This document shows, in pieces, positions 3,974 through 34,019 of a stretch of DNA of 49,001 nucleotides; position 1 is the first letter of the stretch, and each line of letters starts with the position of its first letter. The stretch lies in the NCBI GenBank assembly GCA_964611955.1, contig CAZTBN010000001.1, positions 24,858 through 73,858 of the forward strand, read 5' to 3'. The notes under the pieces were generated by a model, which saw nothing but the letters and a program-made list of their open reading frames with translations, did not search any database and was not told the DNA's origin. The DNA is from an uncultured Pseudomonadales bacterium (GTDB taxonomy: Bacteria > Patescibacteriota > Microgenomatia > UBA1400 > PJMF01). The position numbers and the translations under genes were made by a program.

Positions 3974-4030
3974 TATCTTATCAAAAGTAACAGATGCAAG
4001 CTACACACACTAAGTGTTACAATATTTTTC

Positions 4031-8285: not shown

Positions 8286-9227
8286 ATGTCTGAAGTCCAG
8301 CCATTAATTACTATCATTATTGTTAATTACGATACTACTAATTTAACTTTAGAGTGCCTGCAATCACTTTTGAAGTTAGAACGTGATGGTTTTCGCTATA
8401 ATATTTTGATAGTTGATAATGGTTCACAAAAAGAGTTCAAAATTCCCCATAAATTAAGTAGTCTTAAGCAAACTTATGCTGAATCGATTGACACGATTCG
8501 CACCGAAGCCAATATTGGCTTTACCGGAGGTAATAACTTAGGCATGAGTCATGCAGTCAAATTTTATAATCCTGATTATTTTTTGTTATTAAACTCCGAT
8601 ACCACAGTCACACCCAGTTTTTTAAAACATCTTTATCTAGGAATTCAGGGAGAAGATAGGGGGATTGCCACCAGTAAAATATATTTTGAAGCAGGTAAAG
8701 AGTTTCATCATCAGAGTTATAAAAAATCACAAAAAGGCAAGGTGATTTGGTTTGCTGGTGGTACAATTGACTGGCCTAATTTAATGGCTTTTCATCGTGG
8801 AGTGGATGAGGTTGATCGAGGTCAGTTTGATCAGTTAGCAACCACTGATTTTGCCACAGGTTGTTGTATGTTAATTAAACGAGAAGTTATAGAAAAAATA
8901 GGTATTTTAGACAAAAGATACTTTCTATATTTAGAAGATGTTGATTTTAGTATTAGAGCAATAAAAAAGGGTTATAGTCTTGTTTTTTGTCCACAAGCAG
9001 TAATATTTCATAAAAATGCAGGATCTTCTGGAGGAGCAGGTTCCGATATTCATTTATATTACCAAACTCGCAATAGATTATTGTTCTTTTTACAGCATGC
9101 TCGGTTAAGAATTAAAATTACTGCAATTCGTTATTTATTTAAACTATTAACTAGTAGTAGCTCTATTCAACGTCAGGCTGCTTTTGATTATATTATGCAG
9201 CGATTTGGCAAACAGCCAGTTATTTAA
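8286..9227 (+). CDS. family 2 glycosyltransferase, rhamnosyltransferase-like subclass
   Basis: ITIIIVNYDTTNLTLECLQSL, VDNGS, GFTGGNNLG, LLLNSDT, GCCMLIKRE, YLEDVDFSIRA. Confidence 0.85.
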   Translation: MSEVQPLITIIIVNYDTTNLTLECLQSLLKLERDGFRYNILIVDNGSQKEFKIPHKLSSLKQTYAESIDTIRTEANIGFTGGNNLGMSHAVKFYNPDYFLLLNSDTTVTPSFLKHLYLGIQGEDRGIATSKIYFEAGKEFHHQSYKKSQKGKVIWFAGGTIDWPNLMAFHRGVDEVDRGQFDQLATTDFATGCCMLIKREVIEKIGILDKRYFLYLEDVDFSIRAIKKGYSLVFCPQAVIFHKNAGSSGGAGSDIHLYYQTRNRLLFFLQHARLRIKITAIRYLFKLLTSSSSIQRQAAFDYIMQRFGKQPVI

Positions 9228-9256: not shown

Positions 9257-10090
9257 ATGGATCATAAAATTACAGCCATTATATTGGCTAAAAACTCAGC
9301 AGAGATTATTTCAAACTGTATTCAAACACTGACATGGGTTACTCAAATTTTAGTGATTGATACTGGTTCTGATGATAATACTACTGAAATTGCGGAAAGT
9401 CTGGGTGCTCAGGTGATTCATTTTGCCCATTCTTCATTTGCCAGACTTCGCAACGAAGCCTTAAGTCATGTTGACACTGATTGGTTATTTTATATCGATG
9501 CTGATGAGCGAGTCACTCCCACCTTAGCTAAAGAGATTTTAGTTCATATTGAAACTCAAGATGCAACTGTTCTTTCCATGATGAGACAAAATATCTGTTA
9601 CGGCCAAAAGTTTAACCATGGCGGTTGGAATGAGGATGAAGTGACTAGAGTTTTTAAAAAAGAAGCTTTAAAAAAGTGGGTAGGTAAAGTCCATGAAAGT
9701 CCAGAATATGAGGGTCAGGCTTTGCGTCTGCGCAGTCCACTGATTCATCTCACTCATCGCAACACTGTTGAGGGTTTGCAAAAAACTATTAATTGGACTC
9801 CTATTGAAGCAGAATTGCTTTTTAAGAGTAATTTACCCAGGGTGACCTTTGTCACCATTATTAGAAAAGGAGTCATGGAATTTTTACGCAGGGGCGTTTT
9901 TAAAAAAGGGTACCAGGATGGTATGCCTGGTGTCATCGAAGCTATTGTCCAAGGTATTAATAAAATGCTCATTTATATTCAAGTTTGGGAACTGCAACAA
10001 GCTCCACCCTTAGAGGAACAATATCACAAACAAGAAATAAAAATAGCTAAATTGTGGGAGGATGAGGATATCAAACACTTTAACTCTTAA
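9257..10090 (+). CDS. family 2 glycosyltransferase, LgtF/WaaE-like subclass
   Basis: ITAIILAKNSAE, LVIDTGSDDNTTEIAESLGA, YIDADE, KKGYQDGMPGV and QVWELQ. Paralog of 7378-8283 and 20242-21012. Confidence 0.8.
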   Translation: MDHKITAIILAKNSAEIISNCIQTLTWVTQILVIDTGSDDNTTEIAESLGAQVIHFAHSSFARLRNEALSHVDTDWLFYIDADERVTPTLAKEILVHIETQDATVLSMMRQNICYGQKFNHGGWNEDEVTRVFKKEALKKWVGKVHESPEYEGQALRLRSPLIHLTHRNTVEGLQKTINWTPIEAELLFKSNLPRVTFVTIIRKGVMEFLRRGVFKKGYQDGMPGVIEAIVQGINKMLIYIQVWELQQAPPLEEQYHKQEIKIAKLWEDEDIKHFNS

Positions 10091-10093
10091 GTT

Positions 10094-11203
10094 ATGAAAA
10101 TTTGTTTATTCAGTCCTTATTTTCCAAACAATTTTGGAGGTGGCGAAAAGTATTTATTAGATGTCGCTCTGGCTTTTGCCAATGACAGTCATAATCAAGT
10201 CTTTTTAGCTATTGGAGGCTGTCGTAATCTGAGTCAAACTCAACTCAATACCATTAAATACACCTATTCCCAATTTATTAATAAATCATTAGCTAAAATT
10301 CAGTTTATCAATACCCCTTTAGGAACCAGTAAATTTTCTGTTGCTAAATTATTTTGGACTAAACAATTTGATGTGTTGTTTTATTTAACTGATGGGAGCC
10401 TTTTTTTCTCACTGGCACGTAAAAATATTTTACATATTCAAGTACCACTCAAGCTTGATAAATCATCTTTTCTGGAGCGACAAAAATTAAAAAATTGGCA
10501 GACTAAAATTACTAATTCTTATTTTACCAAAACAGTGATCGAGCCAACTTGGGAAACTAAAATTAATTATGTTCATCAACCCATGGTAGAGGCTAGTGAT
10601 ATTATTCAAGCTACAGATTTTCAATCGAAACAACCTATTATTATTAATGTTGGTAGATTTTTTCCCCAACTCCATAGCAAACGTCAAGACATTTTAGTCA
10701 AAATTTTTGCTAAATTATTAAGAAAATATAAAAAGGAAATGGTTGGTTGGAAATTGGTATTAATCGGTAGTGTGGAACATGAAGGCTATGCTCAATATGT
10801 TCATCAGCTAGCCAAAGGTTTACCTATTGAAATCTTGCATCATGTTAATCGGGCAGAGTTGATTCAAAAATTAACTCACAGTAGCATCTATTGGCACGGG
10901 ACTGGCTATCGAGTTAACGAGTTTGATCATCCTGAAAAACTTGAGCATTTTGGCATTACTACAGTAGAAGCCATGGCTGCTGGCAATGTGCCAGTGGTTT
11001 TAGGCAAAGGTGGCCAAGTTGAGGTCATTGGTAGCGGGTTTGCAGACTGGAGCTGGTTAACACAAAAAGATTGTATTAAAAAAACAGTTCAATTAGTGCG
11101 AAATCCAAGCCTACGATTAAAACTGCAACAACAAGCTCAACTTCAATCAAAACAATTTTCTGCTGAGGTTTTTATTCATAAATTAAATCAAATGCTTGCC
11201 TAA
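10094..11203 (+). CDS. family 4 (GT-B) glycosyltransferase
   Basis: N-terminal FSPYFPNNFGGGEKYLLDVA and C-terminal E-x7-E region EHFGITTVEAMAAGNVPVV. Confidence 0.8.
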   Translation: MKICLFSPYFPNNFGGGEKYLLDVALAFANDSHNQVFLAIGGCRNLSQTQLNTIKYTYSQFINKSLAKIQFINTPLGTSKFSVAKLFWTKQFDVLFYLTDGSLFFSLARKNILHIQVPLKLDKSSFLERQKLKNWQTKITNSYFTKTVIEPTWETKINYVHQPMVEASDIIQATDFQSKQPIIINVGRFFPQLHSKRQDILVKIFAKLLRKYKKEMVGWKLVLIGSVEHEGYAQYVHQLAKGLPIEILHHVNRAELIQKLTHSSIYWHGTGYRVNEFDHPEKLEHFGITTVEAMAAGNVPVVLGKGGQVEVIGSGFADWSWLTQKDCIKKTVQLVRNPSLRLKLQQQAQLQSKQFSAEVFIHKLNQMLA

Positions 11204-11205
11204 TT

Positions 11206-13695
11206 ATGACTCGTACTCTTCCTATCAGCATTGTTATTCCTACCTATAATGGTAAAAGACAGTTACAAAAAAATTTGTCTAGTGTAACTGCACAACTTAA
11301 GAAAAACGATGAACTATGTTTGGTTGACGATGCCAGTTCAGATAATACTCTGCAATATTTAAGTAAAAAATTTCATCTAAAATATGAGGCTTTAGGCGGA
11401 GATAAATTTGGTTCATTTGAGCTATATACCGGCAGTTTGCCCAATCAGGCACAAATCAAGGTCATTGTTAATTTAAACAATTTAAGATTTGCAGCGAGCG
11501 TTAATCGTGCTGTCGAGCAAATCAAACATGATTATTTTTTGTTAATCAATAATGATGTGGAGTTACTGACAGGAGCAGTAACTCAACTTCTGCAAAATTT
11601 TACTAAAAATGAATCATTATTTGCAGTCGGCTGTTTAGAAATCGAACCCAACCAAGACAATATTTTCGGAGGTAAGAACAGATTATTCTTTGAAAAAGGT
11701 TTATTCAGACATAACCGTGCTGAGGACTTTACTACTGGGGAAACCGCTTGGGCAAGTGGTGGTAGCGCCATGTTTGATCGAGCTAAATGGATTAAGCTTA
11801 ATGGCTTTGATCCAGATTTTTATCCAGCTTACTGGGAAGATGTTGATTTATCTTATAGAGCTAAACAACAAGGATGGCATGTTTTATTTGATCAGGATGC
11901 TAAAGTAATTCATAACCACGAATCAACCAATCTTGATGTCTTTGGTCAAAAAGAATTAGAAAAAATAAGTTGGCGCAATGGCCGTCGTTTTACTAAAAAA
12001 CATGCTACTTTTAAACAAAAGTTACAATATTACTGGTATAAACCTTACTGGAACTTAAAATTACTAAAACAGGGTTTACATTCTCAAGAAATTTTAGCAT
12101 TAATTGCAATTTTATTTTTAGCTACGGTGCTCAGACTGTATCAGTTGGGAATTGTACCCGCTGGTATGACTTGGGATGAAGCTGCTATTGGCTACAATGG
12201 CTACGGAGTCATTCAAACCAGAAGAGATGAATGGTTGCAAAAATTACCTGTTTCGTTTAAATCATTTGGCGATTACAAAGCACCAGCTGCTATTTATATC
12301 AATGGACTGTTTACCTCTATTTTTGGATTAAATTTAACTATTGTCAGGTTGCCCTTTGCTTTATGCGGAGTTTTAGCTGTTTGGGGCCTAATTAAATTCA
12401 CTTATGAGTTAGCCTTAATTCATTTTCCTCGTAATGTTAAAGGGAAAGGTTTGACTGCACGAGATCTATCTTTATTAGCTGGATTCATGCTGGCAGTCTC
12501 TCCCTGGCATTTACATTTAAGTCGCACCGGTTTTGAATCAAGCATGGCCTTAACTTTTATAATTTGGGGTTTTTATTTCTTGCTCTTATTTATCAAAAAT
12601 TTGTCAAGATTAACATTAACTCAACTACTTCAATATTTAATTCCAGCTGTTGTTTTGTTGGTATTGCCTTTATATACCTATCATAGTCCCAAAATTTTTA
12701 TTCCAGTTTTTATTATTATTTTTGCCCTGATTCATTTAAATTTGATTAAACGAAAATTAATTAATATCGCTGTTGGCATCTTTATGGGCATAATGCTACT
12801 GCTGCCTTTAATTAAAGATGCTGTGTTTAGTGAGGGGCTAACCAGATCTGGCAGCTTAATTTTATTTCAAAATAACTCATTGACTGGAATAATTGCTTTA
12901 TTAGGTAAAAATTTATTAGCTCATCTTTCACCAGCTTTTTTAGTGGGTGGCTGGACTGACAGCTTGCGTCATGGTGCTGGAACCTATGGAGTGCTTTATT
13001 TGCTTACCTTTCTTTTTTGTTTGATTAGCATTCTTGTATCACTTAATAAGAAAATTTTTAGAAATTACTGGTTGAAACTATCTCTAGTCTGGATTTTTTT
13101 AGGTTTACTCCCAGCGGTTTTAGGTGATACTTATCCTCAAGCTAATCGAGCTTTATTAGCTTTACCTGGTTTTATCTGGCTTTCCTTTATTGGCTTAAAC
13201 TGGTTAATTCTAAAACTTGCTCACAAAACTTCACCTTTCCAACTTTCTAAAACAACTATTTTTATCATTTTAGGCTTGATTTATTTAGCTAATATTGGTG
13301 CTTATCTAACTCATTATTATCATACCTTTGCTTTTCAAAGCGCTAGTGATTATCAAGAGGGATATATTGATGCGATGCAATTAGCATATGAATATGAAAA
13401 AGGTACCAATGGCAAACCCGAAGTTAATCAAATTATTGTTTCTACTCATTATGGTCAACCCTATATTTATGCTTTGTTTGTGCGCAAAACTAATCCTATT
13501 TGGTATCAAGGGGGTTCGCTGAATAAATATTTTTTTGTTGACCAAGTTAAGGAGTCAGACCTATTGAAAGATAATATTTTAGTCATTAGCACTGTAGAAC
13601 AATTAGTAAGCAGACAGCCAGATCATATTATTCATAGCACTGGAGGCTTAACCAGATTTAAAGTCTATTATACTGGCTATCATCATGACAATTAA
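11206..13695 (+). CDS. bifunctional fusion: N-terminal GT2 (GT-A) domain plus C-terminal ArnT/PMT-like GT-C membrane glycosyltransferase
   Basis: aa 1-~290: ISIVIPTYNGKRQL, LVDDASSDN, LLINNDVE, WEDVDLSYRA. From I296 (nt ~12091) there are many TM helices, with W-D-E at 12172-12180 and SFGDYK, HLSRTGFE and TYHSPKIF blocks shared with the next three GT-C genes. One uninterrupted 829-aa ORF. Confidence 0.8.
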   Translation: MTRTLPISIVIPTYNGKRQLQKNLSSVTAQLKKNDELCLVDDASSDNTLQYLSKKFHLKYEALGGDKFGSFELYTGSLPNQAQIKVIVNLNNLRFAASVNRAVEQIKHDYFLLINNDVELLTGAVTQLLQNFTKNESLFAVGCLEIEPNQDNIFGGKNRLFFEKGLFRHNRAEDFTTGETAWASGGSAMFDRAKWIKLNGFDPDFYPAYWEDVDLSYRAKQQGWHVLFDQDAKVIHNHESTNLDVFGQKELEKISWRNGRRFTKKHATFKQKLQYYWYKPYWNLKLLKQGLHSQEILALIAILFLATVLRLYQLGIVPAGMTWDEAAIGYNGYGVIQTRRDEWLQKLPVSFKSFGDYKAPAAIYINGLFTSIFGLNLTIVRLPFALCGVLAVWGLIKFTYELALIHFPRNVKGKGLTARDLSLLAGFMLAVSPWHLHLSRTGFESSMALTFIIWGFYFLLLFIKNLSRLTLTQLLQYLIPAVVLLVLPLYTYHSPKIFIPVFIIIFALIHLNLIKRKLINIAVGIFMGIMLLLPLIKDAVFSEGLTRSGSLILFQNNSLTGIIALLGKNLLAHLSPAFLVGGWTDSLRHGAGTYGVLYLLTFLFCLISILVSLNKKIFRNYWLKLSLVWIFLGLLPAVLGDTYPQANRALLALPGFIWLSFIGLNWLILKLAHKTSPFQLSKTTIFIILGLIYLANIGAYLTHYYHTFAFQSASDYQEGYIDAMQLAYEYEKGTNGKPEVNQIIVSTHYGQPYIYALFVRKTNPIWYQGGSLNKYFFVDQVKESDLLKDNILVISTVEQLVSRQPDHIIHSTGGLTRFKVYYTGYHHDN

Positions 13696-15307
13696 AAAAG
13701 AGGTTTTATTAACCTTTGTAATTCTGCTGCTGGCTTTGTTGATAAGAGGATTTAAACTCGGTAGTAATCCGCCAGGATTGTATTGGGAAGAAGTAGCTCT
13801 AGGATATGATGCCTATTCTATCTGGAAAACTGGAGCTGATCATCATGGCAATCCTTGGCCAATTGTGGCCTTTGAATCATTTGGAGATTGGAAGCCAAGT
13901 CTTTATTTTTATGTCACAGCCCCTTTTGTTGGTTTACTAGGATTAAACTCAGTAACTGTGAGATTGCCTTCATTAATTGCAGGCATGGCCATTGTTTACG
14001 GCGCAGGAGTGTTAGCTAATTTAGTTTTTAAATCATTAACTCAACAAAACAACCAAAAGATCAAACTACTTGGCATGTTGGTCACTGCCTTAAATCCTTG
14101 GGCTATACATTTTTCCAGAGCTGCCTGGGAAGTAAATCTGGCAACTGCCTTGATTCTCTGGGGAGTAATTAGCGGTTTATTATTTTTAAATTCTAACAAA
14201 ATAAAACATCTGATTTATTGTTCGTTCTTGTTAATTCTCTCTATGTATACTTATCATTCGGCCAGAATTTTAGCTCCAGTTTTAGGATTATCAATTTTAG
14301 TCTCCTTGGTAAGGAGTTTTAACAACTGGCCTCAACTTAAAAAGTATGTCATCACCAATCAATTATCGCTACTTGCTTTGCTGTTAATTAGCCTTATGGT
14401 CCTAGCCCCTTTAATAACAAATTTAACTAATAAATCCATAACTCAACGATTTGCTGAAACAAGTATTTTTTCTAACCTAGAGATCATTCAGCTGAGTAAT
14501 GATCAAAAAGAGTTTTTCAATAATTCATTGATCTCAAAGCTTATTTTTCATCGTTATTTATTGTTTGGCCGCGAAGTTGTTCATAATTTTTTGAGTCATT
14601 TTGATTTTAAATTTTTATTTGTGAGCGGAGATATAAATCCCAGACATTCAATCCAATCTTTTGCTCATTTTTACTATCTCGATCTTATATTTCTTTTAGC
14701 TGGAGCAATAGTTTTTTTAAAAAATAAAAAAAATCCAGTCATTTTGATTTTACTTACCTGGTTAATTATAGGTATTTTGCCAGCCTCAATTACAACCGGC
14801 TCTCCTCATGCTTTAAGAATCTTGCCCACCCTGCCGGTCTTTATTGTTTTAATCGTGCTAGGCATTACTTTGCTTTATAACGAGTTGAAAAAAATTATTG
14901 CTAAAAAATTTTTCAAAACATACCAATTAGGTTTTACTGTCGGTTTAGTTTTGGTCTATTTATTTTTCTTTAGTTGGTATTATCATGCTTTTATGCTAAT
15001 CTACCCAACTCAATATGCTTCAGAATGGCAGGCTCAATATCCGGCCTTAATTGCTCAAGTACAACAGCTACAAGCTCAGCAGCCTAATTCAGATATAATC
15101 ATCAGTAGAGAGTGGGGTAGACCAGCCATGTATTATTGGTTCTATACTCAAACTGATCCCAGAGAGGTTCAGGCAGTAGCCAAATCTGTTAAAAAAGATC
15201 AAGGAGAGTTCCTTGAGTTTAAACAGTTACAATTTACATCTCAGGGATTTTCTCAACCTAATATAATGGTACAACTTAAAGATGAAAATATTAACACAAC
15301 TAACTAA
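13685..15307 (+). CDS. ArnT/PMT-like GT-C membrane glycosyltransferase (paralog 2)
   Basis: GLYWEEVALGYDAY, ESFGDWKPSLYFY, HFSRAAWEVN, TYHSARIL, SPHALRILP; many TM helices. The ATG overlaps the upstream gene by 11 nt. Confidence 0.8.
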   Translation: MTIKKEVLLTFVILLLALLIRGFKLGSNPPGLYWEEVALGYDAYSIWKTGADHHGNPWPIVAFESFGDWKPSLYFYVTAPFVGLLGLNSVTVRLPSLIAGMAIVYGAGVLANLVFKSLTQQNNQKIKLLGMLVTALNPWAIHFSRAAWEVNLATALILWGVISGLLFLNSNKIKHLIYCSFLLILSMYTYHSARILAPVLGLSILVSLVRSFNNWPQLKKYVITNQLSLLALLLISLMVLAPLITNLTNKSITQRFAETSIFSNLEIIQLSNDQKEFFNNSLISKLIFHRYLLFGREVVHNFLSHFDFKFLFVSGDINPRHSIQSFAHFYYLDLIFLLAGAIVFLKNKKNPVILILLTWLIIGILPASITTGSPHALRILPTLPVFIVLIVLGITLLYNELKKIIAKKFFKTYQLGFTVGLVLVYLFFFSWYYHAFMLIYPTQYASEWQAQYPALIAQVQQLQAQQPNSDIIISREWGRPAMYYWFYTQTDPREVQAVAKSVKKDQGEFLEFKQLQFTSQGFSQPNIMVQLKDENINTTN

Positions 15308-17114
15308 CCTAATTAGTGATATTTCACAGTTTGATCAGTCTTTGATTAAGCTAGAACATCCTGCTAATCCAGAATTTGGAGATTATTCTACCAATATTGC
15401 TTTAACAACTTTTTCTAAATTAGATCAAGAGTTCATGAGTAGTCATAAACTCACCTCTGTCTTAGATTATGCTAACTTTTTACTGGAACAGCTAAAACAA
15501 GCTTTAGCTAAGCATGAAACTATAGCCCAACAGATAGAATCGGTGTCAATGATAAAACCTGGATTTATCAACTTCAAATTATCAACTCAATTTTTTAGTC
15601 AAGCTTTAGCTGAAGTTTTATCTAATTCTGATTATGGAAAAAGTAAGATCGGTCAGGGCATAACTTGGGAAATAGAACATACTTCTCCTAATCCCAATAA
15701 AGCTATGCACTTGGGTCATCTGCGTAATAACGTTACCGGCATGGCAATTGCTAGACTTTGGGAAGCGGTGGGTATTAAAGTAATTTGTGATGCGATTAAC
15801 AATGATCGGGGTATAGCTATTGCTAAATTAATGTGGGGTTATTTAAAATTTGCTAAAAAAAATGATCAGACTATCACTGATCTTCAGTATTGGTTTGATC
15901 ATCAACAAGAATGGCTTTCTCCTGAAGATCTAAACTTAAGTTCTGATAAATTTGTTGATCAACTTTATACTAAAGCAGCCCAGGATGTTGAGTCTGATAA
16001 AAGCGCAGAAACACAAGTAAGACAGATGGTCATTGATTGGGAAAATAAAGACAAACTAACTTGGGAGCTATGGAGAAAGGTTTTAGACTATTCTCTTAGC
16101 GGACAACAACAAACTCTTACCAGATTGGGCAACCGTTGGGATAAGATATGGCACGAGCACGAACACTACCAGCAAGGAAAAGATTTAGTGGCACAAGGAT
16201 TAAAGTTGGGGATTTTTAAGAAACTGCCTGATGGGGCAATTCTCACTGATCTGACCAAGTTTAATCTTCCTGACACAATTTTACAAAAAAGCGATGGCAC
16301 TTCCTTATACATCACTCAAGATCTTGCTTTGACTAAACTTAAAATTGCTGAGTTTAAGGCCAGTAAATTACACTGGGTGGTAGGGCCTGAACAAAGTTTA
16401 GCTCTTAAACAACTGTTTGCTGTTTGCGATCAGCTCAAAATTGCGAAATTTAAAACTCTGACGCACATAGATTTTGGTTACATGAGTATTAAAGGTGAGG
16501 GCAAGATGAGTTCCCGCTCTGGAAATGTAGTTTATGTTGATGATTTTATTGATGAAGTCAAGGCTAAAGTTAAACAGATACTCAATAATCAAGAGAATCA
16601 AACCTTTGATCCAATTGAGTTAGAAACTATTGCAGAAAAAATTGCTGTGGGGGCGGTTAAATACTCGATCTTAAAAATTGGTCGTAATACAGATACGCAG
16701 TTTGATTTTAAGACGGCGTTAAAAATAGATGGTAACTCCGGTCCTTATTTACAATACACTGTAGCAAGAGCTAAAGCTGTACTCAGAAAAGCAGCTATAA
16801 ATCATCAGGACTTGGTCGCTCAATTTTCTGCTTTAAAGCAAATGCAACTCAGTTCAGTTGAACTTAAAGTTTTAAAGCTTATTTATCAATTTCCAGAAAT
16901 TATTTTGTTTGCTGCTGATACCAATGAGCCTAGTGCTTTGGCTACTTATATCTATGAACTCGCGCAAAGTTTTAATAGTTTTTATAATCAAGAGCATATT
17001 CTTCAAGCTGCATCAGATCATAAAATTTTTAGGTTGGCTCTGGTTAAAGCTGTTGCTAGAATTTTAGAAACTGGATTAGCCATTCTTGGCATAGACACAC
17101 TAGCACAAATGTAA
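15282..17114 (+). CDS. argS: arginine--tRNA ligase
   Basis: Class I HIGH region HTSPNPNKAMHLGHLRNN, KMSKS-equivalent GKMSSRSG, and a DALR anticodon-binding-type C-terminus ending ...LGIDTLAQM. The N-terminal FGDYSTNIAL is typical of ArgS. Confidence 0.93.
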   Translation: MKILTQLTNLISDISQFDQSLIKLEHPANPEFGDYSTNIALTTFSKLDQEFMSSHKLTSVLDYANFLLEQLKQALAKHETIAQQIESVSMIKPGFINFKLSTQFFSQALAEVLSNSDYGKSKIGQGITWEIEHTSPNPNKAMHLGHLRNNVTGMAIARLWEAVGIKVICDAINNDRGIAIAKLMWGYLKFAKKNDQTITDLQYWFDHQQEWLSPEDLNLSSDKFVDQLYTKAAQDVESDKSAETQVRQMVIDWENKDKLTWELWRKVLDYSLSGQQQTLTRLGNRWDKIWHEHEHYQQGKDLVAQGLKLGIFKKLPDGAILTDLTKFNLPDTILQKSDGTSLYITQDLALTKLKIAEFKASKLHWVVGPEQSLALKQLFAVCDQLKIAKFKTLTHIDFGYMSIKGEGKMSSRSGNVVYVDDFIDEVKAKVKQILNNQENQTFDPIELETIAEKIAVGAVKYSILKIGRNTDTQFDFKTALKIDGNSGPYLQYTVARAKAVLRKAAINHQDLVAQFSALKQMQLSSVELKVLKLIYQFPEIILFAADTNEPSALATYIYELAQSFNSFYNQEHILQAASDHKIFRLALVKAVARILETGLAILGIDTLAQM

Positions 17115-17124
17115 TTTTTCAATT

Positions 17125-18684
17125 ATGTTTAAAAAAATTTGCCCATTTTTTGTGTTAAATCTCTCAAGAAAAAATGTTGTGTGGATTATGCTAGCTTTTA
17201 TTTTGGTTGGCATAGCCTTTCGTATTTATAGATTTTCCCAGCAACCAACGGGTTTATATTGGGATGAAATCGCTATGGCAGTTGATGCCAGTGCTGTGAG
17301 TAAAACCGGCAATGATATGCACGGCCATCACTGGCTACAACCGATCTTTGTTTCTTATGGGGATTATAAACTACCAATTTATATTTGGTTATCATCTATT
17401 GTGGCCATGGTTAGTGCTAGCCCTGAAATAATTGCTAGACTACCTAGTTTAATTGCTGGGTTAGGCACGATTGCCATGACTGGCCTGATTGGCATTAAAT
17501 TATTTTCTCACTCTTCTCAAAGCAAAAATTATAAACTGTTAACTTTTATTAGCAGTGTTTTTATCATTGCTATTTCTCCAACTGCAATGCACTTTTCTAG
17601 AGTGGGATTTGAAGCTCATTTGGGACAGTTCATCCTTGCCATGGCTGTATATCTAGCATTATTTGCTAAACTCAGATGGCACATTTTGGCCCAAGTAATG
17701 GCTGTAATTGCCACTAATACTTATTATTCAATTAGATTTGTTTGGCCAATTATTTATTTACTGATTATTGTGCTTGATATACCTCAGTCATTACGTGACA
17801 CAGCGCTGACGCTAAAAAAAAGATGGTCATTTTTTGCTCAGGGTGCCATATTATTTTCTTTATATTGGCTGATGTTAATCCCAATGCAAAACTCTGTTTT
17901 TTATAATTCTATGCAGCAATTTCGCTTAGGAGCTGATTCAATTTTAACTGTTCAAGATTGGGCTGTGGAATCTAATCAATTGCGTGAAGAGGTAGGAAAC
18001 TCTTTTGTTTCCAGAATTTTTTATCATCGTGATTGGCTGATGTTGCGTCAATTTTTGAGCAACCTAAGTAATAATATGTCCTTAAATACTATTTTTATCA
18101 AAGCAGATAATAACTTAAGACATAGCAGCGGTAATCATGGTTTATTTTTTCTACCTTTTTTACCTATTTTAATTTGGGGATTATTCAAACTATTTGAGAA
18201 AAATAAACTAATTTTACTACTCTTAGTCTGTTGGTGGTTAGTTGGACTAGTACCAGCCTCAGTCCCGATGGAAACTCCCCATAGCTTGCGCTCTCTTAAT
18301 AGTTTAATTCCTTTATCATTAATGATTGCTTTTGGTTGGTTACAGCTTGTGGCACAGTTTTCAGTTAAACAGCTTGAGCAAAAAACTCTTTATTTTTTCT
18401 GGGGATTAGTTATTGCCTTACTGTTTAGCTTAATCTCTTTTTATCACTATTATTTTTATCTTTATCCCCTAAAATCAGCTGACTATTGGCAAACTGGATA
18501 CAAGCAAACAGCTCTTGAAACTTGTCAACAAGCTCAACAACAGCCTACTGTGTTAGTTAACCATCATGATCAAAGATTTTTTCTTTGGATATTGGGTTAC
18601 TGTTCTTTTTCTCAGAACTCGTTAGATGAAGCAATCTTTAAGGATTACCAGTTGCAACAACTAGAAAATATTAAGTTTCTATGA
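17125..18684 (+). CDS. ArnT/PMT-like GT-C membrane glycosyltransferase (paralog 3)
   Basis: GLYWDEIAMAVDAS, VSYGDYKLPIYIW, HFSRVGFEAH, TYYSIRFV, TPHSLRSLN; many TM helices. Confidence 0.8.
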   Translation: MFKKICPFFVLNLSRKNVVWIMLAFILVGIAFRIYRFSQQPTGLYWDEIAMAVDASAVSKTGNDMHGHHWLQPIFVSYGDYKLPIYIWLSSIVAMVSASPEIIARLPSLIAGLGTIAMTGLIGIKLFSHSSQSKNYKLLTFISSVFIIAISPTAMHFSRVGFEAHLGQFILAMAVYLALFAKLRWHILAQVMAVIATNTYYSIRFVWPIIYLLIIVLDIPQSLRDTALTLKKRWSFFAQGAILFSLYWLMLIPMQNSVFYNSMQQFRLGADSILTVQDWAVESNQLREEVGNSFVSRIFYHRDWLMLRQFLSNLSNNMSLNTIFIKADNNLRHSSGNHGLFFLPFLPILIWGLFKLFEKNKLILLLLVCWWLVGLVPASVPMETPHSLRSLNSLIPLSLMIAFGWLQLVAQFSVKQLEQKTLYFFWGLVIALLFSLISFYHYYFYLYPLKSADYWQTGYKQTALETCQQAQQQPTVLVNHHDQRFFLWILGYCSFSQNSLDEAIFKDYQLQQLENIKFL

Positions 18685-20231
18685 ACAAATTCTTAGCTTT
18701 AGTTTTAATTATCGTGATTGCAACTGTTTTAAGAGTTTATCAACTGGGTGCTAATCCCACTATTCTAAATCGAGATGAAGCTGCTATTGCTTATAATGCT
18801 TTGTTATTAAAATACTCAGGCCAGGATGAATGGCGACAATCCTGGCCCATAGCTTTTAAGTCTTTTGGTGATTACAAATTGCCTGGATACATCTACACCC
18901 TTTTACCATTTTTATTGATTCAGGAAAATGAGTTTATGGTTAGACTGCCCGCTGCTATAGCAGGAATTTTAATCGTCTTGATTACCTATAAAATTGGTCT
19001 TAGTTTGTTTGAAAAAAAATACGCATTACTGTTAAGTCTAGTGATTGCTTTGTCTCCATTTGCTATTTTTTATTCTAGAATGGCTTGGGAAGCCAACTTG
19101 GGCTTAATGTGGTCATTATTAAGTTTATACTTATTATTTTTTCATCAGCCTGGAAAAACTAAATTTAAGCTACATTCAGATATCATGGCTGTTTTAGCTG
19201 TAATTTTAGCAATAGTAACTTACAACACGCCTTTGATTTATTTGCCGATAGTAATTTTATTAGTGATCCTAACTAGAGTTAAATTATCTTATAAAGAGTT
19301 TCTCCCTTTAACAATTATTTTGAGCGGTATTTTGATATTTTTTTTAATTGCTTTTAATAATCTCAACTCTCAAAAAACTGGCATTATTATTTTTACTGAT
19401 CCGACAGTATGGCAACAGTATGTTGAGTACAGAAATAGCTTATCAAGCGCCTTAGTCCCTCTCTTTGGTAATAAATATGTTTATTGGTTAAAAATAATGA
19501 TAAATAATGTCATTAAAACTTTGTCCTATAAATTTTTAGTTTCAGCTGGAGGCTCACATCCTTGGCATCAAGTTCCAGGTTTTGGTCATTTATATAGCAG
19601 TATTTATTTTTTAGGCTTAGGCGGTATCTGTTTGAGCATTATCGATTTGATCAAAACAGCTAAAAAAGGGATTGAGCAAATTTTAACTGATAAAAAATTC
19701 AGTTTATTATTGCTGTTGGGTGCTGGCTTAATACCGTCGATCATAACCACTGATTCACCCCATGCCACAAGAAGTTTATTGTTTTTGGTTATTTTTACTG
19801 TCTTTTCAGTAATAGCATTAAAAAAAATAAATTATTTTATAAAAAAAGAAACTCTTGGAATTGCTCTTTTTTCATTAGTATTAGTTTTCCAAGCAGCGAT
19901 TTATCTTCATGCTTATTTTGTCAACTATCCTCAGCAACAATCGATCTTAAAACCTGGCTATGATCAAGCTATAATGAAACTGAACCATGCTACTAATCAA
20001 CCTGTTGTGGTGCAAGCTGACGGTTATCAATATATAGTCACCGCCTGGTATTTAAACATTAGACCAACTGATTTTTTTGAAACTGTACAAAGACAAGAAC
20101 CTGATACGGCTGGTTTATATTATGGTCGCAAGTTGATGAACTATGAGTTTGTGTCATCATTAGATAACTTGCCTGAAAATAGTATAATTCTATATTGGCA
20201 TTCACAAACTAACAGTTGGAATTACAAATAA
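18681..20231 (+). CDS. ArnT/PMT-like GT-C membrane glycosyltransferase (paralog 4)
   Basis: ILNRDEAAIAYNAL, FKSFGDYKLPGYIY, FYSRMAWEAN, TYNTPLIY, SPHATRSLL. ATGA start/stop overlap with the upstream paralog. Confidence 0.8.
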   Translation: MNKFLALVLIIVIATVLRVYQLGANPTILNRDEAAIAYNALLLKYSGQDEWRQSWPIAFKSFGDYKLPGYIYTLLPFLLIQENEFMVRLPAAIAGILIVLITYKIGLSLFEKKYALLLSLVIALSPFAIFYSRMAWEANLGLMWSLLSLYLLFFHQPGKTKFKLHSDIMAVLAVILAIVTYNTPLIYLPIVILLVILTRVKLSYKEFLPLTIILSGILIFFLIAFNNLNSQKTGIIIFTDPTVWQQYVEYRNSLSSALVPLFGNKYVYWLKIMINNVIKTLSYKFLVSAGGSHPWHQVPGFGHLYSSIYFLGLGGICLSIIDLIKTAKKGIEQILTDKKFSLLLLLGAGLIPSIITTDSPHATRSLLFLVIFTVFSVIALKKINYFIKKETLGIALFSLVLVFQAAIYLHAYFVNYPQQQSILKPGYDQAIMKLNHATNQPVVVQADGYQYIVTAWYLNIRPTDFFETVQRQEPDTAGLYYGRKLMNYEFVSSLDNLPENSIILYWHSQTNSWNYK

Positions 20232-20241: not shown

Positions 20242-21012
20242 ATGATTTCAGTAGTTTTAGCAACTCATAACGAGGAAAAAAATTTAGCCAGAGCTCTTGA
20301 TTCAATTAAACAGTTTGCTAACGAAATAGTAATTGTTGATGGTAATTCTACTGACAACACAGTTAAGATTGCTCAATCCTATCAAGCAGTGGTGCTTCAA
20401 ACTACCAACAAACCAATATTTCACATTAATAAACAACTAGCAATTGATCAAGCTAAAAATAACTTAATTTTGCAGCTAGATGCTGATGAAACTGTTGATC
20501 AAGAATTAGCAAAATTTATTATTGATTTAGACCAAAACTTAATGGTTCAGCCTTCAGCTGTTATAGATAGTGCTTGGTGGATTAGAAGAAAGAATAATTT
20601 TTTAGGACATTGGCTAAAAAAAGGTGGTCAATACCCAGACCCTGTGATCAGATTATTTATCAAAAATAAAGCCTTTTTACCTCAAAAAAGTGTGCATGAG
20701 CAAATGACCGTCAAGGGCAGTATCGGTTGGGCAACAGGACATCTCTGCCATTATTCCAATCCTACCTTAGCTGATTATTGGCGCAAATTACAAGCCTATA
20801 CTGCTCTGGAGGCTGATAAATTTTCTAAAACTAAGTTGACTGTGCCATTGGCTTTATACTACTTATTTATTAAACCAATTATCACTTTTTTAACTCTCTT
20901 TTTTAGACATAAGGGTTTTATAGATGGTATTTATGGATTCTTATTTGCTTTTTTAAGTGCTCTTCATTTTCCTATTATTATTTACAAAGTTATTAAACAA
21001 AAATTTTCATGA
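20242..21012 (+). CDS. family 2 glycosyltransferase, LgtF/WaaE-like subclass with a hydrophobic C-terminal tail
   Basis: ISVVLATHNEEKNL, IVIVDGNSTDNTVKIAQSY, QLDADE, RHKGFIDGIYGF. The C-terminus has two hydrophobic segments. Confidence 0.8.
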   Translation: MISVVLATHNEEKNLARALDSIKQFANEIVIVDGNSTDNTVKIAQSYQAVVLQTTNKPIFHINKQLAIDQAKNNLILQLDADETVDQELAKFIIDLDQNLMVQPSAVIDSAWWIRRKNNFLGHWLKKGGQYPDPVIRLFIKNKAFLPQKSVHEQMTVKGSIGWATGHLCHYSNPTLADYWRKLQAYTALEADKFSKTKLTVPLALYYLFIKPIITFLTLFFRHKGFIDGIYGFLFAFLSALHFPIIIYKVIKQKFS

Positions 21013-22070
21013 ATAAAAATAAAAAAAATCAGCAAACCATTAATGTCTGGTTAGATGCAGCTCCATTGTCTAACGATAATAAAGATAGGGGTGTAGGAAT
21101 GTATACTCGCTGTTTAATAAATGAACTGGAAAAAATTCCCAATCTCACTTTAGAAAAAAAATATCACAGATCAACAACTAATATTATTCACTATCCTTAT
21201 TTTGATTTATTTTTTCCTACCTTACCTATTCTTAAAAAAACTAATACTGTAGTGACCATTCACGACGTCATTCCCTTATTGTTTCCAGAGAAATACCCAG
21301 TGGGTATAAAAGGAAACCTAGCTCTGCACAAACAAAAACTTTCGCTTTCAACTGTTAAAGCTGTGATTACTGATTCTTGGTCCTCAAAAAAAGATATAGG
21401 TAAATTTTTAGGCGTGAATAATAATAAAATTCATGTTGTTCATTTAGCCCCAAACCCAGATATTAAAAAATTCCCTGCTAATCTGATAAAAAAAGTGATT
21501 GAAAAATATCATTTACCGAAAAATTATGTTTTATATGTGGGTGATATTAATTACAACAAAAATTTGCCAGCATTGATTAAAGCCATTAAATATTTGCCCG
21601 AACAAATTTCCTTAGTCTTGGTAGGTAAAAATTTTAAACAGCAAGATATTCCTGAATGGCACTGGATAGCGACCCAAATGAGCATGAGTAATGTAGCTGA
21701 TAGAATCACCTTTATTGACTCAATCAATAATAAATCTAATCTAGATTTAAGTGCGATCTATAGTGGGGCGATCTGCTATGTTCAGCCATCTTTTTATGAA
21801 GGATTTGGCCTGCCAGTCTTGGAGGCCATGAGAGCCTTAACTCCAGTGGTCACAGGCGATAACTCTTCACTTAAAGAAGTTGGTTCTAATAAAGTTTTAT
21901 ATACAGAACTGGATGCAGAAAACATTGCCCAGGCTATTCAACAAGTCATATCCTGGCCAGATGAAAAAAGAGCAGAGGTTATTTCCCAGGCTTTAGCATG
22001 GTCTCAAACTTTTAGTTGGCAAAAAACCGCTTTAGAAACTGCTGAAGTTTACCAAAAAATTTTATCTTAG
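21009..22070 (+). CDS. family 4 (GT-B) glycosyltransferase
   Basis: VVTIHDVIP and the C-terminal YEGFGLPVLEAMRALTPVVTGDNSSLKEVG (E-x7-E). ATGA overlap with the upstream GT2. Confidence 0.85.
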   Translation: MNKNKKNQQTINVWLDAAPLSNDNKDRGVGMYTRCLINELEKIPNLTLEKKYHRSTTNIIHYPYFDLFFPTLPILKKTNTVVTIHDVIPLLFPEKYPVGIKGNLALHKQKLSLSTVKAVITDSWSSKKDIGKFLGVNNNKIHVVHLAPNPDIKKFPANLIKKVIEKYHLPKNYVLYVGDINYNKNLPALIKAIKYLPEQISLVLVGKNFKQQDIPEWHWIATQMSMSNVADRITFIDSINNKSNLDLSAIYSGAICYVQPSFYEGFGLPVLEAMRALTPVVTGDNSSLKEVGSNKVLYTELDAENIAQAIQQVISWPDEKRAEVISQALAWSQTFSWQKTALETAEVYQKILS

Positions 22071-22081: not shown

Positions 22082-23761
22082 ATGGTAAAAAAAACATTTA
22101 CTCAGCTCAATTTTGGGTCACAACTGTTTTTTGGTATCTTGCTTCTTTTAGGTTTTGTTTTTTTATTCAAGATTTATCTTAATACTGGTTTACCCTCAAC
22201 TCATGATGGTAATAACCATCTAATCAGGTTTGCTAACTACAAGCTAGCATTAAAAGAACTTCAATTTCCTCCGCGCTGGGCACCTAATTTATTAAATCAT
22301 TATGGGTATCCTGTTTTCAATTTTAATTATCCCTTGGCGAATATTTTATCTATTCCATTTAGCATTTTTAAAATCAGTTACGAACTAACTTTTAAGATCA
22401 TTACCCTAGCTAGTTTTATTTTTGGATTAATCGGTTTAAGAAACTGGCTACGCTTATTAAAAGTTAAAAATAACATAATTTATTTAGCCTTAACCAGCTA
22501 CTTAATTAATCCTTATGTGATAAATTTACTCTATTTCAGAGGCAATATTGGTGAAATTATGGCACTCAATCTATTCATTTGGTTAATGTACCTCACAGAG
22601 TTAATCAAGCATCAGCATAATTTTCATCATCAACATAACTTGTGGTTGGGGATCTGTCTATTTTCTCTTTTTTTAATATCGCATAACGTTACCGTACTTT
22701 TTGGGATTCCCATTATTTTTAGTTATGGCTTAGCTAAAAAACTTAGCGTGAGACAATTCCTGACTTTAAGCAAATATTTAATATTTGGTATTGGCTTTTC
22801 GCTCTGGTTTTGGTTGCCTGCTTTGCTGGAAAAAAATCAAACTATTCTCAATAATGCTGATCTATCTCTATTGTATTTACAATATTTTCCTACTTTTAAT
22901 CAATTAATAAATTCTCCACTATCTTTTGGTTTCAGTTATGCTTCTCCAGTAGATGGCTTATCAGCATCAATAGGAAGCTTATTAGTTGTTGTACTTGTTT
23001 TATTTTTTATTAATCTCTTGGCAAACCTAATTACAAAGCACAAAATAAAAATTTCTCAACAGCTGACTGTAATATTGGGAATGATTTTTGTTTTTACTTT
23101 GCTTCAGCTCAAGATGACAGCTGCAATTTGGCAACTCATTCCTCTGGCTAACTTTATTCAATTTCCCTGGCGTTTATCTTTATTTATTGCTGCCCTTTTT
23201 CCTGTGGCTTTCTCTTTAATAGTGCCAAAAAATCAATTAATTTTGAGAGCCAGTATCGTTATTATTATCTGGCAGTTAATTATTTTAAGTAAGTTACAAC
23301 CTATTAGCTACTCTACAGCCAGTAATGAAGTTTATGATACATCAATCGAAACAACATCCACTATTAGTGAAAATATGAGTAAAACTTTTACTTATGATTA
23401 TTTTCAAAACAATGAACTTAATCTAGACATTATAGAGGGCCAAGGCAAAGTTCTAATCAATAATTGGCAAGGATCAAGAAGAAAGTATGATTTATTTCTG
23501 ACACAAAAATCTTTAATTGTTGAACCAACCATGAATTTTTCCGGCTGGGAAACATACGCCAATCAGCAAAAAATTACTTATACTGATTCTAAAATTATTG
23601 GTGGCAGAATTGCCTATTGGCTGGATAAAGGTGATTATCATATAGAAACTAGATTTACGCAAAATACTTGGCCCAGAAAAATTGGTAATACTGTTTTTAT
23701 CATCACCGCTTTTATCACTAGTTATTTTATAATTAAGCAATGGCCTCACAAAAACTTTTAA
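22082..23761 (+). CDS. polytopic membrane protein, GT-C-like (COG5617 / PTPS-related type), paralog of 4031-5803
   Basis: THDGNNHLIRFANYKLALKELQFPPRW, HYGYPVFNFNYPL, ISHNVTVLFG and FIQFPWRLS align block-for-block with 4031-5803. It carries a His-rich loop KHQHNFHHQHN (22607-22639). Confidence 0.6.
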   Translation: MVKKTFTQLNFGSQLFFGILLLLGFVFLFKIYLNTGLPSTHDGNNHLIRFANYKLALKELQFPPRWAPNLLNHYGYPVFNFNYPLANILSIPFSIFKISYELTFKIITLASFIFGLIGLRNWLRLLKVKNNIIYLALTSYLINPYVINLLYFRGNIGEIMALNLFIWLMYLTELIKHQHNFHHQHNLWLGICLFSLFLISHNVTVLFGIPIIFSYGLAKKLSVRQFLTLSKYLIFGIGFSLWFWLPALLEKNQTILNNADLSLLYLQYFPTFNQLINSPLSFGFSYASPVDGLSASIGSLLVVVLVLFFINLLANLITKHKIKISQQLTVILGMIFVFTLLQLKMTAAIWQLIPLANFIQFPWRLSLFIAALFPVAFSLIVPKNQLILRASIVIIIWQLIILSKLQPISYSTASNEVYDTSIETTSTISENMSKTFTYDYFQNNELNLDIIEGQGKVLINNWQGSRRKYDLFLTQKSLIVEPTMNFSGWETYANQQKITYTDSKIIGGRIAYWLDKGDYHIETRFTQNTWPRKIGNTVFIITAFITSYFIIKQWPHKNF

Positions 23762-25849: not shown

Positions 25850-25984
25850 TAAATGAAAATAATCTTACTCATTATTGCTTTAATTTCAGTGATTAGAGCT
25901 AGGTTAAAAAAACAATAATCTAACCTTTTTCACTACTTTTTCCTATCCAGTTCAGCTTTGATCTTCGCTATAATATTCTTAATT

Positions 25985-28862: not shown

Positions 28863-29003
28863 TCTAGCAAATAATTATACTTAAAACTATAATCTGATCA
28901 TTATTATGGTAGAACATAGTAAAATTAGAATCATGCTTTAAAAGTAATGCATTAAGTTACAGTTTTCTTATTTGATAGTTATCTAGTAGAATAGTGTTTA
29001 TTG

Positions 29004-33350: not shown

Positions 33351-33370
33351 GTTATTAACTATGTAAAATT

Positions 33371-33928: not shown

Positions 33929-33960
33929 AGTTAATAAAATTCAATTATTCTCAATTGTTA

Positions 33961-33989
33961 TTGTTAATACTATTTTGATACATTATAAT
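33961..33989 (+). promoter_or_regulatory. candidate sigma-70-type promoter upstream of the orphan region
   Basis: TTGTTA (33961-33966) - 17 nt - TATAAT (33984-33989), 30 nt upstream of the ATG at 34020. AT-rich context makes chance matches likely. Confidence 0.3.
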
Positions 33990-34019
33990 TGTTTAATTAT
34001 TAATCAGCATTAATTTTTG

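Follow-up and report, generated by a model that had tools for sequence, protein, structure and literature searches.

Four paralogous, predicted GT-C glycosyltransferases in an envelope-glycan locus of an uncultured patescibacterium

The mycobacterial arabinan is made outside the membrane by tandem, anciently diverged GT-C paralogs that act in series (embCAB and AftA to AftD; families GT53, GT85, GT87, and GT89), while its backbone is built by cytoplasmic GT2 enzymes (WbbL and GlfT1/2) and the polymer is ligated to peptidoglycan by an LCP enzyme. Here, we describe an array that shares this tandem-paralog logic, namely, four related membrane proteins, referred to as G1 to G4, that are encoded on the plus strand at positions 11206 to 20231 of a 49,001-nucleotide stretch of DNA (the window) from an uncultured bacterium of the Patescibacteriota (Microgenomatia; contig CAZTBN010000001.1 of assembly GCA_964611955.1). 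Our analysis suggests that G1 to G4 are catalytically competent GT-C glycosyltransferases that transfer polyprenyl-phosphate-linked sugars onto a wall glycopolymer outside the membrane; we put the probability of this reading at about 0.6, and within it we infer the donors, the acceptor, and the order of action. EmbB is among the structural matches of G3, but G1 to G4 are much smaller than the arabinan enzymes, lack C-terminal carbohydrate-binding modules, and belong to a different sequence family, and no genes of the decaprenyl-phospho-arabinose pathway were seen in the window.

Multicomponent extracytoplasmic glycosylation has precedents in the GtrABC and GacIJKL/Wps systems, and the scheme of a GT-C enzyme outside, a lipid-linked donor inside, and a flippase is common to GtrA/GtrB/GtrC, GacI/J/K/L, WpsA/B/G/J, the GT136 pentofuranose systems, and the locus as we read it (PMC10821137, PMC11127046). 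Further likenesses are a wall polysaccharide that contains rhamnose, an accompanying LCP ligase, and a strain-variable presence resembling that of serotype-converting modules. The locus differs in having at least four GT-C genes in one operon instead of the usual one, in having one GT-C fused to a GT2 of the chain-building type, and in the lack of a recognizable GtrB-type synthase or GtrA-type flippase adjacent to the array; a GtrA-like gene was not seen anywhere in the window.

ArnT, the lipid A 4-amino-4-deoxy-L-arabinose (Ara4N) transferase of family GT83 (structures 5EZM and 5F15), has in its first periplasmic loop the conserved motifs RYA and YFEKP, whose Tyr and Lys are needed for function; in B. 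cenocepacia numbering, the activity of the enzyme depends on Y43, K69, R254, and E493 (PMC5377068). In the solved structure of ArnT, E84 and K85 touch the metal or undecaprenyl phosphate and D158 and K203 touch the sugar; TMTCs have an equivalent motif, SHKSYRP, just before the second helix of external loop 1 (EL1); and a strictly conserved Arg in the loop between transmembrane (TM) helices 9 and 10 binds the carrier phosphate in the oligosaccharyltransferases (OSTs) PglB (R375), AglB (R426), and STT3 (R404/405/459) (PMC7801869). The E. coli ArnT numbering used below is anchored to 5EZM, with a presumed construct offset of 3 residues.

Fold, topology, and conserved blocks of G1 to G4

G1 (11206-13695; 829 amino acids) is a fusion of a GT2 domain and a GT-C module and is identical to one database protein. 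G2 (13685-15307; 540 amino acids) was recognized by its open reading frame and by BLASTP paralogy, G3 (17125-18684; 519 amino acids), the most divergent of the four, additionally by structural modeling, and G4 (18681-20231; 516 amino acids) also passes the Pfam threshold for PMT_2 (8e-8; 33.0 bits versus a cutoff of 26.1). G2 and G3 have no match in Pfam or NCBIfam, and G1 matches only via its GT2 domain. In pairwise BLASTP comparisons over 200 to 540 aligned amino acids, the four proteins share 26 to 33% identity (85 to 166 bits; E values of 5e-21 to 1e-48). This is far above chance and bears out an earlier reading of the DNA, made from the sequence alone, that had proposed four paralogous plus-strand membrane proteins with these gene limits. 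When the membrane parts of all four are aligned, 36 columns are invariant and identity is 24 to 30%. As the other five GT-C-like proteins of the window gave no comparable BLASTP match, G1 to G4 form a distinct family.

The same reading had called the four genes consecutive, which is incorrect: a complete gene outside the family, argS (15282-17114, plus strand), encoding an arginyl-tRNA synthetase of 610 amino acids (Pfam tRNA-synt_1d, 5e-44; DALR_1, 3e-29; and Arg_tRNA_synt_N), lies between G2 and G3, so that the region holds five open reading frames. G1 and G2 overlap by 11 nucleotides (13685-13695), G2 and argS by 26 (15282-15307), and G3 and G4 by 4 (18681-18684, ATGA), and the remaining junctions of the array (GT4/G1, argS/G3, and G4/GT2) are gaps of 2 to 10 nucleotides. 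This arrangement resembles a single long operon in which translation is coupled. Consensus scans of the window for promoters and terminators gave hits only at chance level, and the window contains no tRNA genes.

Profile searches of the PDB sequences with 4-sequence and 69-sequence profiles gave no match at an E value of ≤10, and the link to solved structures therefore had to come from folds. An AlphaFold2 model of full-length G1, built from an 88-sequence alignment, had a pLDDT of 93.4 and a pTM of 0.92. As the Foldseek results for this model were dominated by GT-A matches, G3 was modeled alone (pLDDT, 82.2; pTM, 0.87) for a clean GT-C comparison. Ranks 1 to 25 against the PDB were all GT-C enzymes or GT-C-like subunits (query TM-scores of 0.45 to 0.51), among them PglB (5OGL; 5e-6), AglB, human and yeast STT3 (STT3A/B), Pmt4 (2.9e-3), PIG-U, EmbB, and GPI-MT-I, and unrelated transporters appeared only at probabilities of ≤0.14. 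The full-length G1 model could also be aligned to yeast Stt3 over 569 columns (3e-8). Together with the PMT_2 match of G4, the models and structural matches agree with the GT-C fold that had been proposed, and a predicted fold of the GT-C_A type (PMT-ArnT-OST clan), with active sites facing outside, is strongly supported. The best structural matches are the GT66 enzymes PglB, AglB, and STT3 (E values of 5e-6 to 2e-4), which likewise have an acidic residue in EL1 and an Arg before TM10. However, G1 to G4 have neither the WWDYG motif nor the large C-terminal domain of OSTs, are only 10 to 13% identical to them, and have sequence motifs that resemble those of enzymes with monophosphate donors.

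The models have 11 TM helices and a 65-residue EL1, and positive-inside statistics agree with them. Among 69 family members, the cytoplasmic loops are all net positive (+0.5 to +3.0, with about 12.5 Lys plus Arg per roughly 49 residues), the short outer loops are neutral, and charge ranges from neutral to negative in EL1, EL4, and the C-terminal domain, which are the long outer segments. A Leloir-type GT2 domain requires cytosolic nucleotide sugars, and that of G1 is one TM helix upstream of W-D324-E325. The charge bias and the cytoplasmic GT2 domain thus place the acidic D/E-E pair, and with it all conserved blocks, outside the membrane, which is the side predicted for the pair by the sequence-only reading. 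In G1, the GT-C module comprises amino acids 294 to 711 (12085-13338), with the 11 helices predicted to run N-in/C-out by the model and the charge statistics, and its EL1 holds a helix (323 to 338) and a β-hairpin (351 to 358). An extracytoplasmic α/β domain (amino acids 712 to 829; 13339-13692) with a conserved YGQPYIYALFVRKTNPIWYQGG motif, recognized in the alignments and the model, forms the C terminus.

Five conserved blocks had been quoted from the translations, and each of them could be located, letter for letter and in the same order, in G1 to G4. Block 1 (W-D324-E325...GY, in G1 numbering) is the acidic EL1 motif M1 of the clan and is encoded at 12163-12204 in G1 (residues 320 to 333), 13775-13816 in G2 (31 to 44), 17251-17292 in G3 (43 to 56), and 18762-18803 in G4 (28 to 41). 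E325 is invariant (88 of 88 sequences), and position 324 is Asp or Glu in all four orthogroups; the alignments strongly support the assignment of this block as the putative catalytic acid motif, with the D/E-E pair as catalytic base or metal ligand. Block 2 (S353-F-G-D356-Y-K358-x-P) is found at 12256-12297 in G1 (351 to 364), 13871-13912 in G2 (63 to 76), 17347-17388 in G3 (75 to 88), and 18855-18896 in G4 (59 to 72). It had been thought that the SFGDYK block could not be mapped to any characterized enzyme. In the G1 model, however, it forms the hairpin directly before the second EL1 helix (360 to 373), which is the site of motif M2 of the clan, and it is the positional equivalent of YFEKP (E84/K85) in ArnT and of SHKSYRP in the TMTCs. 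Based on sequence position and secondary structure, we propose that Block 2 is M2, a putative site for the lipid phosphate or a metal.

Block 3 (S-R440-xxx-E444) is located at the outer end of TM3/TM4 (12514-12540 in G1, residues 437 to 445; 14108-14134 in G2, 142 to 150; 17590-17616 in G3, 156 to 164; and 19068-19094 in G4, 130 to 138), and Block 4 (T-Y492-H...P500) is located in EL3 (12676-12699 in G1, 491 to 498; 14249-14272 in G2, 189 to 196; 17719-17742 in G3, 199 to 206; and 19218-19241 in G4, 180 to 187). They appear to correspond roughly to the D158 and K203 regions of ArnT, respectively, with Tyr replacing Lys in the latter. Position 493 in Block 4 is group specific, with His in G1 and G2, Phe or Tyr in G3, and Asn in G4. 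Block 5 (P644-Q-A-N-R648) is part of the external TM9-TM10 loop (13135-13158 in G1, 644 to 651; 14801-14827 in G2, 373 to 381; 18274-18300 in G3, 384 to 392; and 19755-19781 in G4, 359 to 367). According to the model and the charge statistics, R648 lies in an external loop just before a TM helix, at the same position as the Arg of motif M7; the block is M7-like, and R648 matches the phosphate-binding Arg of the OSTs by position. Block 5 had been described as degenerate in the fusion protein. The window G1 does read PQANR, but this is peculiar to the genome: residue 645 is Gln here and His in 19 of 20 G1 orthologs (PHxNR) and in all G2 to G4 orthologs, and the invariant Pro and Arg are retained.

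A comparison with ArnT by hhalign gave a probability of 2% (E value of 0.023) against a single ArnT sequence and 14.6% (E value of 0.0018; 476 columns) against a shallow ArnT alignment of relatives that are at least 76% identical. The alignment is statistically weak but collinear, with DE on DE, K358 on the Lys of YFEKP, FGxNxxxVR(LP) on FGANNFGVR, E444 one column off D135(Ec), which is D158(Cm), and T-Y492-H over T-K-G with K203(Cm). The proteins had been termed ArnT/PMT-like, which holds for the clan motifs and the GT-C fold; they are not orthologs of ArnT or PMT, as they have no NCBIfam match, no PDB sequence match, and 11 instead of 13 TM helices. With ArnT, G1 to G4 have in common the GT-C_A architecture, a C-terminal extracytoplasmic domain, and a collinear EL1 series (W..DE..Y, D(E)W, and YFEKP versus FGDYKxP, followed by FGxNxxxVR at TM2). 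In the G1 family, however, the Lys motif is located on a β-hairpin, RYA and YFEKP occur only as variants (DEAAIGY for DExRYA and SFGDYKxP for YFEKP), and K203 is replaced by an invariant Tyr. Neither the arnBCADTEF genes for synthesis of the Ara4N donor nor a lipid A pathway is present in the window. With PMT (GT39) and TMTC1 to -4, the family shares the PMT_2/PMT matches of G4 and many homologs, a DE/DD motif in EL1, a basic M2-type motif (S-H-K-S-Y-R-P in TMTCs versus S-F-G-D-Y-K-x-P), and the Arg before TM10 (PMC7801869). It differs in the lack of MIR or TPR domains, in the failure of G1 to G3 to reach Pfam thresholds, and in a genetic context of glycopolymer machinery rather than protein secretion.

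Fourteen columns are invariant among the 88 sequences (R310, E325, D341, S353, D356, K358, R381, P383, R440, E444, Y492, P500, P644, and R648). Ten of the residues (E325, D341, S353, D356, K358, R381, R440, E444, Y492, and R648) are kept in all window paralogs and in 19 or 20 orthologs per group, which argues that all four enzymes are active. The 26 columns that are conserved across all four orthogroups fall in external loops or TM helices and none in cytoplasmic loops. Another 12 columns (323, 324, 331, 343, 354, 359, 362, 445, 446, 547, 588, and 647) are fixed within groups and differ between them; 10 of these are in external loops, 2 are beside E444, and none is cytoplasmic. Such group-specific residues adjoining the catalytic blocks would be expected if specificity for donors or acceptors had diverged, although they are not proof of it. 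Given these fixed differences, G1 to G4 most likely add different residues or linkages. That there are four specificities acting in series, as had been proposed, is something we infer, and the group-specific residues near the catalytic blocks are the one line of evidence pointing to it.

Orthogroups, gene order, and the GT2-GT-C fusion

The family is very large and partly annotated. A family profile matched at least 740 proteins at an E value of ≤1e-5 among the candidates listed; many of these, from Patescibacteria, Pacebacteria, Woesebacteria, and Shapirobacteria, are annotated as "hypothetical protein," "glycosyltransferase family 39 protein," or "ArnT family glycosyltransferase," and about half of the homologs listed carry PF13231 or PF02366. 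The family is concentrated in Patescibacteria. An exhaustive search of 1.84 billion representatives (50% identity) returned 6,117 at ≤1e-30, 14,218 at ≤1e-10, and 25,025 at ≤1e-3.

For a survey of gene order, G1 was used as bait with one genome per species, yielding 153 loci that encode a relative of G1; 80 of these were retrieved (L001 to L080). The conserved order is LCP (minus strand), the GT-C-like gene at 3950, Wzx, three GT2 genes, GT4, G1, G2, (argS), G3, G4, GT2, GT4, the gene at 22082, the PIG-V-like gene, and the epimerase gene. Array composition was counted at 51 loci, namely, those with 7 kb or more of sequence downstream of G1: 21 have exactly G2-(argS)-G3-G4 in this order (9 of them with argS between G2 and G3, as in the window), 14 have none of G2 to G4, 6 have only G2, and at the remaining loci, different combinations or additional copies occur. 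The genomes that are nearest to the window by G1 identity (50 to 56%; L001, L003, L004, L008, L026, and L030) have G1-argS followed by the downstream GT2 and lack G2 to G4, while retaining the whole flanking cluster, whereas more distant genomes (G1 identity of about 40 to 48%) carry the full array. G2 to G4 thus behave as a gain/loss module.

Across 19 of the loci and the window, identity is 41 to 46% within orthogroups and 21 to 26% between them. In neighbor-joining trees of this set, bootstrap monophyly was 86/100 for G1, 100/100 for G2, and 54/100 for G3, and the G4 clade was pure but for one sequence below the labeling threshold. These values and the conserved order agree with the earlier view that the paralogs are too diverged to be recent duplicates, and the trees and alignments support G1 to G4 as four ancient orthogroups that have the same order in many genomes and vary in copy number. 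Extra family members were observed upstream near the first GT2 gene or within the array at L009, L015, L043, L064, L077, and other loci; these are only 23 to 32% identical to any window paralog, and the family thus has more than four orthogroups.

Two further observations concern the surveyed loci. In genomes without G2 to G4, argS directly follows G1, and its identity to the window argS is bimodal (51 to 56% versus 26 to 32% by locus), whereas G1 identity varies smoothly, which hints at two argS lineages or at replacement. In addition, many of the contigs are titled "uncultured Pseudomonadales bacterium" yet carry the same cluster as Pacebacteria, Woesebacteria, and Microgenomates contigs, and the Pseudomonadales label on these metagenome-assembled contigs looks like a taxonomy placeholder or error.

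The GT-A (GT2) catalytic domain of G1 comprises amino acids 1 to 247 (11206-11946), as delimited by Pfam (Glycos_transf_2, PF00535; 3.6e-20, amino acids 8 to 192), the alignment of fusion orthologs, AlphaFold2, and Foldseek. According to DSSP assignment of the model, two long, K/R-rich helices (248 to 266 and 269 to 291; 11947-12078) link it to TM1. Among the residues that do not vary in 16 fusion orthologs are D41 and D42, N115 and D117, E211, D212, and D214, and H236 and H238, and with its DD, NxD, WEDxD, and HxH motifs thus conserved, the domain looks active. Its best structural matches, obtained with the full-length model, are ppGalNAc-T2 (9e-10) and WrtF (2e-8; target TM-scores of 0.63 to 0.66); WrtF is an O-polysaccharide fucosyltransferase (PMC12595478). 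Its paralogs in the window are COG1216-type, rhamnosyltransferase-like GT2s (at 8286, 36553, and 41989). By these relatives, the domain is most similar to Leloir enzymes that build glycan chains.

G1 is fused (about 800 to 850 amino acids) at about 25 loci and split at about 45, into a GT2 gene of about 285 to 300 amino acids and a GT-C gene of about 500 to 570 amino acids. Between the two genes of a split pair, each of the three relative frames is found, another gene sometimes intervenes, and the split GT2 forms have no TM helix. The fusion and its split counterparts are a genuine Rosetta-stone link that nominates a functional partner, and we think that, at the cytoplasmic side of the membrane, the GT2 domain transfers a sugar onto a lipid-linked glycan. 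A role as a polyprenyl-phosphate-sugar synthase was also considered for this domain and was judged unlikely, given its ppGalNAc-T/WrtF structural neighbors, its COG1216-type paralogs, and the TM-less split forms. Literature searches found no described GT2-GT-C fusion of the G1 type, which is not proof of absence.

Genomic context, proposed role, and rival explanations

Upstream of the array, the window contains, on the minus strand, rmlD (634-1551), rmlB (1520-2575), and LCP (2837-3973) and, on the plus strand, a GT-C-like gene with PTPS_related (PF10131) and PMT_2 matches (3950-5803), a Wzx flippase gene (5742-7283), three GT2 genes (7378-8283, 8286-9227, and 9257-10090), and a GT4 gene (10094-11203). 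Downstream, also on the plus strand, are a GT2 gene whose product has a C-terminal hydrophobic segment (20242-21012), a GT4 gene (21009-22070), a gene for a membrane protein paralogous to that at 3950-5803 (22082-23761; 27% identity, 1e-25), a PIG-V/GT87-like gene (23740-24900), and an NAD-dependent sugar epimerase/dehydratase gene (24926-25849). Farther on are a second flippase gene, of the Wzx/MOP type (25958-27325), a GT-C-like gene with a weak PMT_2 match (29001-30542, plus strand), a gene for a Wzy_C/O-antigen-ligase-like protein (37582-39303), and a GT-C-like gene with a PMT (PF02366), Agl23-like product (39303-40775, plus strand). In total, 9 GT-C-like genes are found in the 49-kb window (G1 to G4 and, from other families, those at 3950, 22082, 23740, 29001, and 39303), together with seven GT2 and several GT4 genes. 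The run of glycan genes is broken in places by housekeeping genes, as is typical of a compact, streamlined genome: trmD is at 43-648, and a ruvC-ruvA-ruvB group at 32832-35925 includes, before ruvB, an open reading frame for 141 amino acids (34384-34809) without a Pfam match.

The presence of LCP, Wzx, rmlB/rmlD, GT2, and GT4 genes suggests that a wall glycopolymer is decorated or elongated on the extracytoplasmic side. In the mechanism that we favor, GT2 and GT4 enzymes of the operon would build the polymer backbone on a polyprenyl carrier in the cytoplasm, with rhamnosyltransferase-like GT2s fed by rmlBD, giving a rhamnose-containing polymer, and a Wzx-type flippase would move it outward. 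G1 to G4 would then each take a sugar from an outward-flipped polyprenyl-phosphate-linked donor and decorate or extend the polymer, which the LCP enzyme would anchor to peptidoglycan. The paralogs would form a set of modules for decoration or elongation, present in different copy numbers in different genomes, and G1, fused or adjacent to a GT2, would be the core member of the set, performing one cytoplasmic and one extracytoplasmic step on the same polymer.

Several results weigh against this mechanism. No GtrB/DPMS/ArnC-type synthase was identified among the seven GT2s of the window by NCBIfam, PDB sequence search, hydropathy, or BLAST; only the GT2 at 20242-21012 has a C-terminal hydrophobic segment, and this protein has a weak AglJ match (7e-9, far under the cutoff) and GmaR and SunS as its best PDB relatives. 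The structural neighbors of G3 are protein-modifying OSTs, ArnT is not among its top 50 Foldseek matches, the TM-scores are about 0.5 with a high global root mean square deviation, and the profile link to ArnT is statistically weak (probability of 2 to 15% by hhalign). Finally, the "core" status of G1 is partly a sampling artifact, since G1 served as the bait for loci.

Three of the GT2s, at 7378-8283, 9257-10090, and 20242-21012, flank the array and are mutually related (24 to 30% identity). The best solved relative of those at 20242 and 9257 is the flagellin glycosyltransferase GmaR (7e-9 and 7e-13, respectively), and the other best relatives of the trio are peptide S-glycosyltransferases (SunS and ThuS-like). 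These three enzymes may glycosylate proteins, or they may be the lipid-sugar synthases that are otherwise missing. Their relationship to enzymes that modify flagellin and peptides also bears on a different reading of the array, in which G1 to G4 are bacterial PMT-like protein O-glycosyltransferases that move sugars from polyprenyl-phosphate to Ser/Thr residues of proteins undergoing export (secreted, S-layer, or pilus proteins), with the paralogs serving different protein substrates or forming heterodimers. Yeast Pmt1 and Pmt2 form such heterodimers, and the G1/G2 and G3/G4 overlaps are compatible with paired subunits. The PMT_2 match of G4, the PF02366/PF13231 matches and "glycosyltransferase family 39" names of many homologs, and the top structural matches to protein-modifying OSTs and Pmt4 point in the same direction. 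However, the tight, conserved synteny with the LCP ligase, Wzx flippases, rmlBD, and many GT2 and GT4 genes, the lack of a MIR or other peptide-binding domain in Pfam searches, the resemblance of the motifs to those of ArnT (with a lipid/glycan acceptor) at least as much as to those of PMT, and a variable copy number, as expected of glycan decoration, make this reading unlikely, though one to be kept in mind.

It is somewhat less likely still that some or all of the paralogs are polymerases or ligases for polyprenyl-(pyro)phosphate-linked repeat units, similar to WpsH/WpsJ or an OST, rather than monosaccharide transferases, so that a flipped repeat unit would be polymerized or a whole chain moved onto another wall polymer. 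Wzx-type flippases, of which the window encodes two, typically flip undecaprenyl-pyrophosphate-linked oligosaccharides, and the structurally nearest enzymes, PglB, AglB, and STT3, use pyrophosphate-linked oligosaccharides. The invariant Arg before TM10 matches by position the phosphate-binding Arg of the OSTs (PMC7801869), and WpsH and WpsJ provide a lactococcal GT-C precedent (PMC10821137). Conversely, the DE pair and the YFEKP-type Lys have their aligned counterparts in enzymes of the ArnT/PMT type, whose donors are monophosphates, the window encodes a separate Wzy_C/O-antigen-ligase-like protein (37582-39303), and four such enzymes in a row would be unusual. That the array is merely redundant, with at least one paralog an inactive scaffold or a decaying duplicate, is highly improbable, since, despite the absence of G2 to G4 from the closest relatives and the Gln for His in PHxxR of the window G1, all open reading frames are intact, every clan motif residue is kept in the four window proteins and in 19 or 20 orthologs per group, and the orthogroups are ancient and positionally conserved.

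Beyond transfer of polyprenyl-phosphate-linked sugars by G1 to G4, a bolder proposal, which we hold only tentatively and consider rather improbable, is that in Patescibacteria of the Microgenomates group, a complex wall glycan is for the most part made outside the cell by an arabinan-like line of GT-C enzymes, with G1 physically joining, in a single polypeptide, a chain-building GT2 in the cytoplasm to a GT-C outside. In its strongest form, the G1 GT2 domain may make a lipid-linked intermediate that is received, on the other side of the membrane, by its own GT-C module or by a heterodimer partner such as G2. If so, G1 would be a self-contained inside-out glycosylation unit.

Implications for Patescibacteria envelopes

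G1 to G4 are not a new enzyme class, as the fold, the catalytic logic, and tandem arrays of GT-C paralogs are already known. Rather, they belong to a divergent branch of the GT-C/PMT-ArnT enzymes that is very abundant and in part already annotated, and they lie within a typical Patescibacteria envelope-glycan operon. What is new is the mapping of the motifs, the four conserved orthogroups with their modular presence and absence, and the GT2-GT-C fusion and its split forms. With this, a subfamily of about 6,100 representative clusters is defined, with the diagnostic motifs W-DE, SFGDYKxP, SRxxxE, TYH, and PHxxR, high-confidence models of it are at hand, and the mapping of its blocks to functionally tested residues of ArnT, TMTCs, and OSTs provides direct targets for mutagenesis. 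Literature searches found nothing on GT-C enzymes in Patescibacteria or the candidate phyla radiation, which is not proof of absence.

The Patescibacteria (candidate phyla radiation) are uncultivated bacteria with genomes of about 1 Mb that live attached to other cells, and their cell envelopes are almost uncharacterized. A conserved operon of about 17 genes, four to nine of which are for GT-C enzymes, points to an elaborate surface glycopolymer that would be assembled outside the membrane and that probably plays a part in attaching to or recognizing a host.

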